NCBI GenBank assembly: GCA_020201155.1
Contig: JAIVHI010000167.1
Location: 5,688 to 69,687, forward strand
Source: Loktanella sp.
GTDB taxonomy: Bacteria; Pseudomonadota; Alphaproteobacteria; Rhodobacterales; Rhodobacteraceae
DNA: 64,000 nt
Direction of reading: 5' to 3'
Under the pieces are notes generated by a model, which worked only from the letters and a program-made list of their open reading frames with translations, was not told the origin of the DNA and ran no database searches. Of this stretch, positions 9,716 through 29,583 are shown in pieces. Made by a program: the position numbers and the translations under genes. How positions within the stretch are numbered: the first letter of the stretch is position 1; each line of letters starts with the position of its first letter.

Positions 9716-12700
9716 CTATTCGGCCGCTATTCCTTCGAGCCGGTCTTCCAGCGCGTCTGCCGCCTGTCTCAGGCCGGCAAGAGTTTCGTCGTCGGGGGTC
9801 CAGTAGGACCGGTCGCTTGCTTCCAGCAAACGGTTCGCCATGCGGGCACTGGCAGCAGGGTTCAGCTTGCCCAGTCGCTCGCGCATTTCCTCGTCCAGAA
9901 CAAACGTCTCCGAGAGTTTCTGATAAACCCAGGGCTCCACTTGTCCCGTTGTCGCGGACCAGCCCACCGTGTTGGTGATATGGGCCTCGATCTGGCGCAC
10001 GCCTTCGTGGCCATGCTGCAACAGGGGTTCGAAATACCGGGGGTTCAGGCTGCGCGACCGCGTCTCCAGCGCGACCTGATCGCGCAGGGTCCGCACCGTG
10101 CCTTCGCCGCGCGTCTGGTCCCCGATGAACACCTGTGTCTCGCTGCCGCGTGCGCGTTTCACCGCGCGGGCGATACCACCCAGCGTGTCAAAGTAGTGGT
10201 CCACCGTGGTGACACCCAGCTCGACGCTTTCCAGGTTCTGATAAGCCAGATCGACCGTCTTCAGCGTGGCCTGCAACAGGCCTGCGTTCTGCGTCGGATT
10301 GCCATCGGTGCCATAGGCGAAGGATTTCCGCGCCTCGTAGGCATCCGCCAGTTCGTCCTCGTCGCCGAAGGCCGAACTGTCGACCAGCTGGTTGACGTTC
10401 GCGCCGTAGATGCCTTCCGCGTTCGAAAAGACGCGCAGGGCCGCGGTCTCGATCGGGCAGTCCTGCTCTTTGGCGTAGGCCAGCGCATGAGCGCGAATGT
10501 AATTCTGCTCCAGCGGCTCGTCCGCCGTGGCGCATTTCAGCGCGGCCTCGGCCAGCAGCTTGGTCTGCAAGGGCAGCAGGTCGCGGAAGATGCCGGACAG
10601 CGTCATCACCACGTCGATGCGCGGGCGACCCAGGTCGGCCAGCGGGATCAGATCGGCACCGCACAGGCGGCCATAGCTGTCAAAGCGCGGTGTCGCGCCC
10701 ATCAGCGCCAGGGCCTGCCCGATCGGGCCACCGTCTGACTTGATGTTGTCGGAGCCCCAAAGCACCAGCGCCACCGTGCGCGGAAGTGTTTCTTGCGTAT
10801 CCAGCAGCCGCTGCGCCTGTGCGGCACCCGACAGCAAGGCAAAGGTCGTGGGCATCCGGAACGGATCGAACGCGTGGATGTTGCGCCCCGTCGGCAGGAT
10901 GTCGGGCTGACGGATCAGGTCGCCACCGGGCACCGGCGCCATGAAATGCCCCGACAGCGCGTTCATCAGCGCAGGCAATTCATGATCGACTGACAGCAAC
11001 AGCTCGACGCGCGCGGCAGTCTCCGCGTCGGTTTCCATCGCGGCGATGTAGCGGGCGCGGGCCTCGGGCACCATCGGCTTGCCGACGATATGCAGCCCAT
11101 CGGGGATCAGTGCCGCTTCGGTTTCCAGCAGCTTCAGCCAAAGTGCGGCGGGATCGCTGCCATCCAGATCGACAAGTGCTGCCTGATCGACGATCAGCGC
11201 CGCCAGATCATCGCGGCTGACATCGGTCGGCGCCATTTCACGCCAGCGCGTCAGGCTGTCCTTGAGATCGATCAGACCCTTGTAAAGCCCCGCCTGGGCC
11301 AGTGGCGGCGTCAGGTGCGTGACCGTGATCGCGTTCGACCGGCGTTTTGCCAGCGTGGCTTCCGACGGGTTGTTGGCGGCATAAAGATAGATGTTCGGCA
11401 GGTTCCCGATCAGCCGGTCGGGCCAGTCGTTGCCAGACGGCCCCGCCTGCTTGCCCGGCATGAATTCCAACGCGCCGTGCATCCCGAAGTGCAGCAGCAC
11501 GTTGGCTTTGAAATCGGCCCGCAGCCAACGGTAGAAAGTGCTGAACGCGTGCGTCGGGGTAAAACCGCGCTCGAACAGCAGCCGCATCGGGTCGCCTTCG
11601 TAGCCGAACGCCGGCTGCACGCCCACAAAGACGCGGCCGAACTGCGCACCAAGGATGAACACACCGCTGCCATCGGATTGCGACCGACCGGGGGCCGGGC
11701 CCCACTGGGCTTCGATCTCGTCCAACCAGGGCGTTTCGGCCACGATGCGGTCGGCGCTGACATGGGCCGCGACATTGGCCTCCTGCCCGTATTGCTGGGC
11801 GTTGCCCTTGAGGACGATCATGCGCAGATCGTCGACCGTGGCCGGGACCTCGACGTCATAGCCCTCCGACTTCATCCGGTTGAGCGTATTGAAAAGGGAC
11901 TCGAAGACGCTGAGATAGGCCGCCGTGCCGACAGCACCCGCATTCGGCGGAAAGCCGTAAAGCACCACGGCCACGTTCTTGTCAGCGTTTTCGGCGCGGC
12001 GCAGATGTGCCAGACGGCGCGTGCGTTCAGCCAGTGCATCGATCCGCTCGTGGCAGGGCGCCATCGCCTTGACGTGGCTGGCACTTTCGCAGTTATGCGA
12101 ACAGCCGTGACAGCCACCCAGTGCATGACGGCCCGCAAAGACCGTCGGGTTGGTCGCACCGTCGATTTCGGGCAGCGCCACCAGCATCGTCGTCTCGACC
12201 GGGCCAAGGCCCTGTGCCGACCCGGACCATTCCGACAGCGTCTGGAACTCCAGAGGTTGGGCCGCAATATAGGGCACGTTCAGCCCCGCCAGCGTAACAA
12301 GCGCGGCGGCGCTGTCGTTGTAGGCCGGACCACCGACAAGGCTGAAACCGGTCAGCGATACAAGCGCGTCAACATCCTGCATGTAGTTGTCGATCGCAGG
12401 ACGCCCGTCCAGCCCCCCGGCGAAACCGGGGATCACGCGCATGCCCTTGGCCTCGAACTGGCGGATGACGGCGTCGTAATGCGCGGTGTCACCGGCCAGA
12501 ACGTAGGACCGCAGCATCAAAACACCCACCTTCGGTCCCTCGCCCGCGGCGGGCAATTTGGCCGCATCCGTCACGATGTGGTGGTCCGGCAGATCCGGGT
12601 GGTATAGACCCACATCCGGATATTCGACAGGGGGTGCCGCACGGGCCACCTCCCAATCGGGGCGGTCGGCGTAACGGCCGATCAGGAACCGGATCAGGCC

Positions 12701-13252
12701 TTCGATATTATCATCGGAGCCGCCCAGCCAATATTGCATCGACAGGAACCAGGCCCGCAGGTCCTGCGCCTTGCCGGGGATCAGCTTCATCATCTTGGGC
12801 AGACGGCGCAGCATCTTCATCTGCTTGGCGCCCGACGCGCCCGACGGCTTGGCCGATCCGCGCAGCCGCTGCATCAGCTTCATCGCACCCGACTTGGGCT
12901 TCGCCATGTCGAGATTGCCCATCTTGGTCAGCCGCACCAGCGAACTGTCCGAAACCATGGCGACCAGCGCATCGCAATGGTCGCGTCGCGCGGTCAGCGC
13001 AGGCAGGATCGCCTGCACATGCTCTTCCAGGAACAAGACGCTGAGGATCAGGATATCCGCCTCACCGATCGCATTCCGTGCCGCCGTCAGGGCTGCGGGA
13101 TCGGCACCCCACTCCGCTGCGGCGTGAACCGTGACCTCGAGCCCGGGGAACTGCGCCGCAAGATCGGGCGACACACGTGCCACGGGGCCGGCGGCGTGGC
13201 GGTCCAGCGTCAGGATGGTGACGCGGTAGATCTGATCAACGTTATCTCGCAT
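9716..13252 (-). CDS. bchH: Mg-chelatase large subunit
   Basis: About 1178 aa of the CobN/Mg-chelatase H family. Start chosen at [17 protein letters not shown] (ATG 13252), overlapping the bchB stop by 11 nt. The track ORF adds 45 implausible residues. Confidence 0.93.
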
Positions 13253-14789
13253 AATGAGCCTTCGCTTCATAAAGAGTATCGACCGAAATCTCGGACACAC
13301 CCTGTCGGGCTGCGAAACTCTCGGTGTTGCGCCGGGCCTTACCGCGCACGAAAAAGGGGATCTTGCGCAGTTCGCGTTCTGCATCATCCAGCCAGATGAC
13401 CTGCGCTTCTTCCTTCATCTCGGCCGGTAAACTCCGGGGGGTCTGGGGGGCTGGCCCCCCGTCTTCGACGCGCGCCGTCGCAGCGCCACCGTGGTGGCTC
13501 GCGCCCGCGTCGTCGTGGAATTCGAAATCCGACCGGAACATGTGCAGCAGGTGCTCTTCCAGCCCCATGACCAGCGGATGCACCCAGGTGTCGAAGATGA
13601 CATTGGCACCTTCGAACCCCATCTGGGGCGAATAGCGTGCGGGAAAGTCCTGCACATGAACCGGCGCGGAGATCACGGCGCAGGGAACGCCCAGCCGCTT
13701 GCCGATGTGCCGTTCCATCTGGGTGCCGAGGATCATCTCGGGCTGCAGCTCGCGGATCGCGTCTTCGACTTCGAGGTAATCCTCGGTAATCAGGGCATCG
13801 ACGCCGAAGTCCTTGGCCAGCGCCCGGATGGGGCGGGCCATTTCCCGATTGTAGCATCCAAGGCCTGTGACCTCGAAGCCCATCTCGTCGCGGGCGATGC
13901 GGGCGGCAGCGGCCACATGGGTTCCATCACCGAAGATGAAGACCCGCTTGCCGGTCAGATAGGTGCTGTCGACCGAGGCCGAATACCACGGCAGACGCAG
14001 CCGGCTTTCGTCGGCCTTGCAGGGCAGACCGGTGATCGTGGCGATCTCGGCAAGGAAATCGCGCGTGGCGCCGACGCCGATCGGCACGACCTTGGTGAAA
14101 GGCTGGCCCAGTTCGCGTTCGCACCACCGGGCCGCCGCTTCGGCGGTTTCGGGATACATCAATACGTTGAAATGCGCGGCCCCTGTACGGGCGATATCGG
14201 CGGGCGTGCTGCCCATCGGGGCCACGACGTTGACCGAGATACCGATATCCGACAGCAGCCGCGTCAGTTCCTCGACATCGTCACGGTGCCGAAAGCCCAG
14301 TGCGGTCGGGCCGATGAGATTGCAGGTGATCTCGGGCGTCCGCTCCATCGGGAGGGCCAGGGCGCGGACGATCTGGAAGAACGTCTCATCGCAGCCGAAG
14401 TTTTCCTTGCGCTGGTAGCTTGGCAGTTCAAGCGGAATGACGGGGATCGGCAGGTTCAGCGCTTCGGTCAAACCGCCCGGGTCGTCCTGGATCAGTTCGG
14501 CGGTGCAGGAGGCGCCGACGATCATCGCCTGCGGTTGAAACCGCTCGTAGGCATCGCGGGCGGCGTCCTTGAACAGCGTCGCCGTGTCCGAGCCCAGATC
14601 GCGGGCCTGAAACGTCGTGTAGCTGACCGGCGGGCGGTGGTTGCGACGCTCGATCATGGTGAACAGCAGATCGGCGTAGGTATCGCCCTGCGGCGCGTGC
14701 AACACGTAATGCAGACCCGTCATGCCCGTAGCGACACGCATGGCACCCACATGGGGCGGGCCTTCGTATGTCCAGACGGAAAGCTTCAT
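13242..14789 (-). CDS. bchB: light-independent protochlorophyllide reductase subunit B
   Basis: 515 aa ([23 protein letters not shown]...), NifK-like. The C-terminal linker contains repeat copy A in-frame (see findings). Confidence 0.95.
13413..13460 (+). repeat. GC-rich hairpin repeat, copy A (inside the bchB coding sequence)
   Basis: CTTCATCTCGGCCGGTAAACTCCGGGGGGTCTGGGGGGCTGGCCCCCC. The first ~27 nt are nearly identical to copy C and to the reverse complement of copy B. Confidence 0.8.
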
Positions 14790-14813
14790 AGGATTGTCCC
14801 GCCTGTGGCCAGT

Positions 14814-14864
14814 GTCGGACCGGGGCTCTGCCCCGGACCCCGGAGTTTTTGGGCCGAGATGAAG
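14814..14864 (-). repeat. GC-rich hairpin repeat, copy B (bchN-bchB spacer, inverted orientation)
   Basis: The reverse complement reads CTTCATCTCGGCCCAAAAACTCCGGGGTCCGGGGCAGAGCCCCGGTCCGAC. Core stem is CCGGGGC-tct-GCCCCGG. It fills most of the 82-nt spacer. Confidence 0.8.
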
Positions 14865-14871
14865 AGGGAGA

Positions 14872-16652
<1,781 letters not shown>

Positions 16653-28013: not shown

Positions 28014-29480
28014 TCATCCTTTCTGGGGTTCAGCCCGCGCGTCGAGCGCACGGACGGTTTCACGCGCAACGCGGTCGCAGCCTGCCTCGAGGGCAGAGCG
28101 TTCGGCAGCATCGCGCAGTGTTTTGGCAGCCGAGATCCGGGTCAGAACCGGATGAGTGGCCACGATGTCGTCAAGCAGGCGTTGGGCATCGACATCCCAC
28201 GGCAGATCCCGGCGCAACGGCGTCGGTGTCGCGGGGGTCTCGTCCATCACCGTGCCAAGGGGCAGGATGTGGAACAGCGCATCGAAAAGGCCGTTGCAGA
28301 CCTCCTGCAAAAGATAGGTCGCACCGGCGTAACCCATAAAGGGCGTGCCCGTCGCGCGCCGGATCGCGGCACCCGGAAAGCTCGCCGGGATGAACGTAGG
28401 CGCGGGACCGTGACCGGATTTCAGCTCGGCCAGATACATCTTCTCATTGATCGACCCCATCAGCACCAGCGGCCGCTTTTCGGCCAGCATGCGCCGCACG
28501 GCGTCGTTGTCGGTCTTCTTGCCGGCACAGCGGGCGACGGCAAAGGCGCAGGGCAGACCAAGATCGTCTTCCAGGAACCGGCGGATGCCGCGGGTATAGG
28601 TTTCGTTCGCCACGATGGCGAAAGACGCGGTCGCAAAGAAATCCTGCGTCACCGACCGCCACAGGTCCCAGACGGGCTTGAGCGTCGAATGCTTCTCTTG
28701 CTCGATGAAGGGCTCGGGGTCCAGATCCAGCATCTCGCCCAGCGTGCGCAGGAACTTCGTCGTGGATTCCACACCGATCGGTGCCTGCAGGTAAGGCTTG
28801 GCCAGAACTTCGCACAATCCGCGCCCGAACTCGCGATACATGCAGATGTTCACATCGGCATTTACCAGATCGCGCATCTCGGCCACATGGGCACCCAGCG
28901 GCATCACCATGTTGACTTGCGCCCCGATGCCTTCGACCAGACGCCGGATCTCGGCCAGGTCGGACGGCATGTTGAAGGTGCCGTACATCGGACCCAGGAT
29001 ATTGACGCGGGGGGCGGCCCCCTCTTCGCGCTTGGTCTCCTTGGGCATCCGGCCCTTGGTCATTCCGAACTCGGTAAAGATCCAGGTCATCGCCCGGTCG
29101 GCGGCTTCCCATTGATCCTCGTCGATGGTGCGCGGCAGGAACCGTTGCAGGTTCGTGCCCATCGGCGTCACACCACCACCGATCATCTCGGCGATGGATC
29201 CCGTGACGACAACGGCGGGCAAAGCGGGGTCCAGAACCTTCCAGGCCCGCTTCATCGCACCCTCGGTGCCGTCGCGTCCCAGCTCTTCCTCGCCCAGCCC
29301 GGTCACCACGATCGGCAACTCGTGCGGCGGCAGCGCATCGGTATAGTGGAGCACACTTGTCACCGGCAGGTTCTCGCAGCCCACGGGACCGTCGATCACC
29401 ACCTGCAATCCCTTGACGGCACAGAAGGCATAGACCGCCCCCCAGTATCCGCCCGCGCGGTCATGATCCTGAATCAGCAT
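28014..29480 (-). CDS. bchZ: chlorophyllide a reductase subunit Z
   Basis: 488 aa ([40 protein letters not shown]...). Confidence 0.95.
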
Positions 29481-29494
29481 GAAAGGCTCCCCTG

Positions 29495-29538
29495 CTTCAT
29501 CTCGGCCCGTAAACTCCGGGGTCCGGGGCAGAGCCCCG
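29495..29538 (+). repeat. GC-rich hairpin repeat, copy C (bchY-bchZ spacer)
   Basis: CTTCATCTCGGCCCGTAAACTCCGGGGTCCGGGGCAGAGCCCCG. Same orientation as copy A. Lies within the 103-nt spacer. Confidence 0.8.
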
Positions 29539-29583
29539 AAAGGGGTGGTTGGGCGGGCCCGACCACTGGGATCAAGGCCAGCA

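Follow-up and report, generated by a model that had tools for sequence, protein, structure and literature searches.

A GC-rich hairpin repeat in frame within the BchB linker of Loktanella sp., probably maintained at the nucleic-acid level

We analysed a stretch of 64,000 nucleotides (nt) from Loktanella sp. (GenBank assembly GCA_020201155.1, contig JAIVHI010000167.1, positions 5,688 to 69,687 of the forward strand), here called the window, in which the gene bchB holds a copy of a GC-rich hairpin repeat in its reading frame. BchB is subunit B of DPOR, the dark-operative oxidoreductase of protochlorophyllide, and the repeat, which we call copy A, lies in the linker between its catalytic core and its C-terminal domain. 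We consider it probable, with some reserve, that this copy is tolerated, inherited and translated as part of a disordered linker, and that a constraint on the nucleic acid keeps it intact.

Copy A is a member of a modular, non-autonomous family of hairpin repeats that is present across the bacterial family of the host. According to our explanation, a copy may have entered the variable, unstructured BchB linker in an ancestor common to several Roseobacter-group lineages, and would have been inherited since and translated as 16 harmless linker residues. Its maintenance would take place at the DNA or RNA level, either through selection for the hairpin or because other copies correct it repeatedly (by gene conversion or re-templating).

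Position of the repeat in bchB

The features concerned are the following.

13411..13460, minus strand: copy A of the hairpin repeat, bchB nt 1330-1379, residues G444-K459, in frame
13434..13460, minus strand: 27-nt block GGGGGGCCAGCCCCCCAGACCCCCCGG, bchB nt 1330-1356, hairpin GGGGGG-CCAG-CCCCCC followed by AGA and a C-run
13242..14789, minus strand: bchB (DPOR subunit B, 515 amino acids (aa)), Pfam Oxidored_nitro 12-406 and PCP_red 466-510

The product of 13242-14789 matches the solved DPOR B subunits (PDB 8vqi and 3aek) at E about 1e-270. Its catalytic core reaches to about residue 417 and is followed by the linker (about 418-464) and the PCP_red C-terminal domain (466-510). On the coding strand copy A reads GGGGGGCCAGCCCCCCAGACCCCCCGGAGTTTACCGGCCGAGATGAAGGA and encodes the 16 residues G444-K459. 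It is a short form of the repeat, in which hairpin 1 is followed by AGA, a C-run and the 3' module GGAGTTTACCGGCCGAGATGAAGGA, the AGA standing where hairpin 2 would be. Searching the window with the 27-mer core and allowing up to 3 mismatches gave three matches, compared with none in 100 shuffles. The sequence-only reading, made earlier on this DNA, had placed the repeat in frame within bchB, in the linker ahead of the conserved C-terminal domain, and the open reading frame (ORF), the Pfam domains and the window matches bear this out.

The hairpin GGGGGG-CCAG-CCCCCC of copy A folds at -12 kcal/mol. It can form, and the conservation at the DNA level is consistent with the hairpin mattering; the sequence-only reading had suggested that it may act as an mRNA hairpin within the bchFNBHLM transcript.

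An AlphaFold2 model of BchB, built with 119 homologues, has a predicted local distance difference test score (pLDDT) below 50 at residues 399-461 and of 31-34 over 411-460. Residues 418-464 are coil without secondary structure, and the PCP_red domain is predicted with confidence (81-89). Because of the low pLDDT of the linker, the 16 element-encoded residues are modelled as lying in an unstructured, flexible tether. Between HHGG and W466 the linker is hypervariable throughout the relatives, with 23 to about 40 residues, and the region is reportedly poorly ordered in the crystal structure of the R. capsulatus NB-protein. The PDB chain 9efu_B corresponds to BchB(1-419), without linker and C-terminal domain, and could inform on the dispensability of the linker region.

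An internal translation start at the in-frame ATG of copy A (M458) was considered and rejected, because this ATG is missing from the orthologous copies in two relatives (P0005 and P0007). The longest bchH ORF (window 9716-13387, minus strand) extends 146 nt into bchB. The bchH start probably lies near window position 13252, since bchH of the relative with 95% BchB identity is called with an 11-nt overlap (L028 11538).

The repeat family in the Loktanella genome

The genome (G000; 3.69 Mb, 342 contigs, 62.5% GC, 91% complete) contains a large family of these repeats. A regular expression found 20 copies and a first round of nhmmer 42 (E<1e-3), and the second round raised this to 81 (E<1e-3) or 89 (E<0.01). 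The aligned copies are modular. A (C/T)GCA lead precedes hairpin 1 (G5-6-NNN(N)-C5-6), to which hairpin 2 may be added; a C-run with GG behind it and the 3' module complete the element. Both hairpins, the second where present, are perfectly paired, and the two ends of the element bear no relation to each other, one being a hairpin and the other GATGA(A/T)G. In 23 copies hairpin 2 is GTCC-TGC-GGAC, which suggests a recent burst in this genome. The 3' module has the general form GGAGTTT / GGGATATTT - N6-7 - AGATGA(A/T)G and occurs in three flavours: GGAGTTT(T/A)CGGGCCGAGATGAAGGAG, GGGATATTTGGGGCAAGATGATGAG and GGCATATTTTCACTCGGATGAAG. Many short copies are made up of just GCCTCCGGCGGG and the 3' module. 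The commonest short-form join is GGA (four copies), and AGA is found in one copy besides bchB.

Copy A is identical to an intergenic copy on contig C41 at 46 of 46 nt, except for a middle that is 9 nt shorter in copy A. The view that copy A belongs to an otherwise mostly intergenic, GC-rich palindromic repeat holds. The family comprises at least 81 copies in several modular forms, and none of them carries sequence flanking bchB; the repeat has therefore entered bchB and not the reverse, as the sequence-only reading had proposed.

The genes adjoining the copies are ordinary ones such as hrpB and bchZ. For about 40 of the 89 copies a long ORF, rich in GC at third codon positions (GC3), begins within 60 nt past the 3' end, and for 22 a gene start lies at the 5' end; this bias in orientation is mild and only indicative, as the local ORF/GC3 test is noisy. 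The purine-rich 3' end of the element frequently acts as the Shine-Dalgarno sequence of the downstream ORF.

Nucleotide conservation of the bchB copy

A full-gene alignment of bchB was made from four taxa, Loktanella sp. (G000), its 95% relative (P0002, locus L028), and P0007 and P0005 (loci L032 and L033), which share 82-83% protein identity. Pairs in this alignment diverge by 10.5-24.6% over the gene and by 25-48% at third positions, and the 27-nt block is its sole invariant run of at least 12 nt. The block is identical in a fifth taxon, P0021, so that all nine of its synonymous sites agree in five taxa. Since the block is invariant while bchB differs by about 24%, it is the DNA or RNA that is kept and not the peptide; judged from these sequences, the hairpin architecture appears to be what is constrained. 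Moreover, a comparison of G000 with L028 gave no differences in the 50 nt of the element, 11 in the 45 nt of linker just upstream and 5 in about 55 nt of the intergenic copy B, which is described below.

The 3' half of the bchB copy varies by lineage. It is GGAGTTTACCGGCCGAGATGAAGGA in G000 and GGGATATTTC.. in P0005, P0007 and P0021. The 3' halves of three coding copies of G000, in bchB and in the genes xdhB and cobN, match the type-1 consensus of this genome, and inherited sites tend to carry the repeat flavour of the resident genome. In hairpin 2, both in the bchB copies across taxa and in generic copies (107 in G001, 35 in G005 and 32 in G019), the stem sequence is hypervariable, the pairing is perfect and the loop is usually TGC or TTC. 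We found at least 10 different stems, all perfectly paired, and dozens of stems within each of these three genomes. Taken together, the invariance of the block and the pattern of flavours call for one of three processes: selection that depends on structure, correction between copies, or re-insertion at targeted sites.

Occurrence of the bchB copy among relatives

To follow the bchB copy among relatives we used the 119 closest BchB clusters (81-95% identity; Roseobacter, Pseudooctadecabacter, Thalassococcus, Sulfitobacter and others). The element peptide GGPAPQ(-/AALS/PAAS)(T/S)PR(D/G/S)(I/L/F)S.. is found at the same linker place in 39 of them, as a short or a long form. Octadecabacter and others among the nearest BchB proteins are without it, and the linkers of R. 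denitrificans and R. litoralis BchB resemble decayed copies. An insertion specific to the lineage, as the sequence-only reading had envisaged, was not confirmed, since the same peptide and the same 27 nt are present in the 95% relative and in the taxa at 82-83% identity. Nor is there a lineage-specific lengthening, as the 515-aa BchB and its linker are not longer than those of the relatives. That reading had also held that the same residues and nucleotides in bchB of distant relatives lacking the intergenic repeat would point to an origin of the repeat in bchB. The nucleotides do occur in relatives, but the repeat is widespread in the bacterial family of these carriers.

On a BchB tree built without the linker columns, the presence of the element requires 13 changes, compared with a mean of about 33 for shuffled labels; none of 500 shuffles was that low. 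G000 falls into a supported five-row clade, four members of which count as carriers: G000 itself, the 95% relative and P0021 have the element, P0037 has lost the hairpin and kept the 3' module, and P0108 has none. In a wider sample of 72 further Rhodobacteraceae loci a strict pattern was found in 10, and a copy was recognisable by eye in about 20, including Tateyamaria, Aestuariicoccus, Litoreibacter, Roseicyclus, Rhodophyticola, Sulfitobacter and Tabrizicola. Tateyamaria sp. syn59, Aestuariicoccus sp. MJ-SS9 and Roseobacter cerasinus are examples of cultured carriers of the element in the BchB linker. At least seven taxa have the join CCCCCC-AGA-CCCCCC in their bchB copies. As this AGA join is common in bchB and rare in G000 generally, it argues that those bchB copies are orthologous. 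In 21.5 kb of the 95% relative the repeat was found only as the two orthologous copies.

Two further observations concern the same linker. A different GC hairpin, GGGGGGCTCGATGCCCCCC, which reads ..EGGSMPPE.., lies in the BchB linker of Rhodobacter, Cereibacter, Cypionkella and Roseinatronobacter types (loci L049, L054, L057, L063, L068, L071, L084, L085, L087 and L098). The chain PDB 8vqi_B, of R. sphaeroides type, reads ..EGGSIPPE.. there, so that the linker of the protein studied by cryo-electron microscopy (cryo-EM) is probably repeat-derived. In addition, a metagenome contig from ENA (P0003, 2991 nt) encodes a BchB of 618 aa with an exact internal duplication of about 103 residues including the linker, which is probably an assembly artefact.

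In-frame copies in xdhB and cobN

The sequence-only reading had described the other copies as strictly intergenic. This is correct inside the window and fails genome-wide, where two more enzyme genes hold in-frame copies.

Contig C25:2119-2181 (locus L012), outside the window: long-form copy in xdhB, in frame
Contig C183:10150-10198 (locus L114), outside the window, antisense orientation: copy in cobN, in frame, encoding DPFISAKKLPPEG in a loop

The xdhB copy (..GGPAPRPADSPRSFPTEMKEG..) lies in an open frame of 919 codons, with a protein of 803 aa from the ATG and the domains Ald_Xan_dh_C, MoCoBD_1 and MoCoBD_2. It encodes ..DVAGGPAPRPADSPRSFPTEMKEGD.. between MoCoBD_1 and MoCoBD_2, and its orientation and frame agree with those of the bchB copy. 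Among ten aligned relatives, five are without an insert here (L020-L024) and five have inserts (G005, G001, G010, G019 and G006); at the DNA level the inserts of G005, G001 and G019 are this element, each in the flavour of its genome, as in GGGGGGCTCTGCCCCCC..CCCCCGAGGTATTTCC. An imperfect direct repeat of 11-12 nt, GGGGACGTCGC / GGGAGACATCGC (peptides GDVA / GDIA), brackets the xdhB copy and may be a target-site duplication. For CobN, an antisense element is present at the same loop in G005 (CEISPPEASK) and G006 (EKIPPPEASD), each with its own flavour, and order-level relatives are without it.

The ORFs of bchB, xdhB and cobN are uninterrupted, each copy having Pfam domains to either side, and the orientation of each coding copy matches that of the copies at the same site in other genera. 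Seven further in-frame candidates (C148, C172, C47, C102, C201, C245 and C274) were discarded as shadow ORFs or 5' untranslated regions, for example upstream of the hrpB start.

Copies in the bch spacers

The remaining two copies of the window lie in spacers of the bch operons.

14820..14866, plus strand, antisense to the operon: copy B, short form, in the 82-nt bchN-bchB spacer (window 14790-14871), right after the bchN TGA (14872-14874)
14872..16158, minus strand: bchN, upstream neighbour of copy B, an ORF whose syntenic gene in the 95% relative carries Oxidored_nitro
29493..29566, minus strand, sense to the operon: copy C, short form with the extra 5' module GGGCCCGCCCAACCACCCCTTT, in the bchY-bchZ spacer
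28014..29480, minus strand: bchZ, with Oxidored_nitro and PCP_red, downstream neighbour of copy C

At the bchN-bchB junction, compared in 73 taxa, about 45 have an ATGA stop/start overlap, and about 20 from many genera carry an element in the spacer. All of these are antisense and directly behind the bchN stop, and some have decayed to the 3' module alone. Copy C consists of the repeat proper (29493-29537) and the extra 5' module (29540-29566), both on the minus strand, in a spacer of 103 nt (window 29481-29583), and its 3' end lies 15 nt ahead of the bchZ ATG. The bchY-bchZ junction is a TGATG overlap in G010 and G013 and holds a short copy in G000 and a long one in G006, both sense. Direct repeats bracket the spacers of G000, ATGA for copy B and ATGCTG for copy C; they could be target-site duplications or merely reflect the need for stop and start codons. 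Both of these long spacers stand where the majority of relatives have an overlap of stop and start codons. The ATGCTG remnant of an old bchZ start lies directly behind the bchY stop.

The extra 5' module of copy C, GGGCCCGCCC(A/G)(A/C)CCACCCCTTT, is also found in four further G000 copies (C78:19433, C78:13982, C94:14362 and C41:37174), and these elements are therefore composite, like bacterial interspersed mosaic elements (BIMEs). No intrinsic terminator or SPRITE-like element, with a T-run immediately behind a GC hairpin, was predicted at any copy within window 13000-15100.

Distribution and mobilising machinery

A strict 3'-module pattern, GGRRTWTT-N7-AGATGAWG, was searched in 151 genera of the same bacterial family. 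It occurs in 48 of them, many of which are without bchB, and each genome has its own flavour; the reversed control gave 0 everywhere. The count is highest in G000 (57). Looser flavours, as in G001 and G006, escape the strict pattern, and the true spread is therefore wider.

A link to the REP-associated tyrosine transposase (RAYT; REP, repetitive extragenic palindromic) was ruled out, as its domain Y1_Tnp (PF01797) had no match in the 91% complete G000 at E<=0.01 and its presence does not track copy number over the 151 genomes. It is present in 4 of 48 genomes with the element and in 14 of 103 without. Of the eleven further genomes with the highest copy numbers, one (G081) gave a partial match, and G089, G136, G109 and G103 were without it. 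Terminal inverted repeats or a related full-length insertion sequence were not found. Across the whole window Rfam gave no match that reached the gathering score, and around copy B just chance-level matches (E<=10). In the literature that we searched, this repeat has not been described in Rhodobacteraceae.

Discussion

Our data suggest that the repeat in bchB is an old guest of the linker, maintained as nucleic acid. The hairpin block is identical between taxa and the 3' half has the resident flavour, unlike the linker around it, which drifts; this argues for a DNA- or RNA-level process that maintains the copy. Several findings weigh against this explanation. About two thirds of the close BchB relatives are without the element, which is therefore dispensable for DPOR. 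At least 4 of the 13 presence changes on the tree are forced by well-supported branches, and the hairpin-2 stems and 3' flavours at the bchB site differ between lineages, so that part of the distribution could be due to repeated insertion and not to descent. Regions of 76 nt do not fold more stably than GC-matched shuffles (z = -0.99), and energy alone is therefore uninformative in such a GC-rich context. Finally, our searches identified no mobilising enzyme.

A rather unlikely variant is that the repeat is more than tolerated junk, namely a structure-constrained nucleic-acid module present throughout this bacterial family, whose copies at orthologous sites, among them codons of essential enzymes, are kept fresh by re-templating or site-specific re-insertion, each genome imposing its own flavour. 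This would be a concerted evolution like that of the Rickettsia palindromic elements (RPEs), driven by a machinery other than RAYT and possibly with a role in the processing of operon mRNAs. Another idea is that of a domesticated cis-element, according to which the hairpin in bchB and its two siblings in the spacers are kept for an effect on the mRNAs of the photosynthesis operon, for example through processing or stability or through a ribosome pause between the BchB core and the C-terminal domain. The nucleotide invariance of the block, which exceeds that of any catalytic segment of bchB, would fit this idea, as would the stronger conservation of the in-frame copy A compared with the intergenic copy B, the constant orientation of the three window copies at bch junctions and linkers occupied in many genera, and one compensatory stem change (GAGGGG..CCCCTC in L073). 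However, xdhB and cobN, which are unrelated to photosynthesis, show the same pattern of conservation, the element is missing from the majority of BchB relatives mentioned above, it has plainly decayed in P0037, L073 and the linkers of R. denitrificans type, and no terminator signature was found. We regard a domesticated cis-element as unlikely.

The same-site copies in different genera (bchB, xdhB, cobN, bchN-bchB and bchY-bchZ) might also be independent and fairly recent insertions of each genome's own active variant into hot spots. The variation of the 3' module and hairpin 2 by genus at one site, resembling the resident flavour, speaks for this; the three coding copies of G000, for instance, have GGAGTTT..CCGAGATGAAG, and the relatives GATATTT. 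The 46/46 identity with the C41 copy and the short direct repeats ATGA and ATGCTG around the spacer copies point in the same direction. We nevertheless hold hot spots to be improbable, because the AGA join recurs in bchB of at least seven taxa and in just one other G000 copy, where GGA is usual, because presence is strongly clustered on the BchB tree and because the orientation is fixed at each site. Selection on the peptide, with GGPAPQTPR as a functional linker motif, is very unlikely. The residues GGPAPQ..TPR do recur in many BchB clusters, but five taxa agree at all nine synonymous sites of the block against a third-position divergence of 25-47% elsewhere, the same DNA encodes the linker of the unrelated XdhB and occupies non-coding spacers, and the motif is missing from most BchB proteins, including the solved enzymes of R. 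capsulatus and Prochlorococcus. It is extremely improbable that the linker is native to bchB and gave rise to the intergenic copies. The same nucleotides do occur in bchB of other genera; yet the modular forms and at least 81 copies show no bchB flanks, many of the 48 element-positive genera among the 151 are without the gene, and the bchB copy is a derived short form.

Rickettsia is the textbook case of selfish palindromic DNA translated within essential genes, and the RPE appears to be the closest known analogue of the inherited copy that we propose for BchB. In the account of Ogata et al. (2000) summarised in PMC10969869, RPEs are dispersed palindromic repeats of about 100-150 bp in an obligate intracellular host, found between genes and in frame in unrelated housekeeping genes, with nearly half of the copies coding in some families. 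The present family likewise is palindromic and dispersed, keeps an open frame in its coding copies and has its inserts in a loop or linker; as in RPEs, the peptide would be added at positions compatible with the fold, and some insertions are common to several species. Unlike RPEs, which we compared by description only, our element has 35-75 nt, is extremely GC-rich and modular, and has a variable stem that is always paired. Moreover, just 3 of about 85 copies lie in coding sequence, the host, an alphaproteobacterium, is free-living and marine, and the coding copies are better conserved in their DNA than the gene that holds them.

The repeat also resembles REP sequences, BIMEs and REP doublets forming hairpins (REPINs; PMC3733652), which are short GC-rich hairpins, present in tens to around a hundred copies and mostly outside genes, with a modular and composite build and a species-specific consensus. 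It differs from them by its long non-palindromic 3' module and by the lack of Y1_Tnp in G000. The 5' flanks are usually (C/T)GCA, with CGTCGCA before a few copies (C25, C159), and there is no consistent GTAG/CGTC head as in REPs. Like transposable elements of the miniature inverted-repeat type (MITEs) and intragenic repeats of ERIC/BOX type (PMC10969869), it is small and non-autonomous and can fuse in frame, and short direct repeats possibly flank some copies. In contrast to MITEs, no terminal inverted repeats were found, and the asymmetric element has its hairpins on one side and a conserved linear module on the other.

A similar, much smaller and far more GC-rich element than that of Rickettsia is thus now seen in free-living marine bacteria of the Roseobacter group, in at least three enzymes (BchB, XdhB and CobN) and at two bch junctions. 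It also calls for caution, as variable linkers in alignments can be repeat-derived, apparently including that of the R. sphaeroides BchB studied by cryo-EM. The longest perfectly conserved DNA of bchB encodes a protein segment that is predicted to be structureless, and the case therefore separates nucleic-acid constraint cleanly from protein constraint. The family offers a concrete system in which to ask by what route short repeats without a recognisable transposase can spread, and whether ectopic gene conversion keeps their copies uniform.

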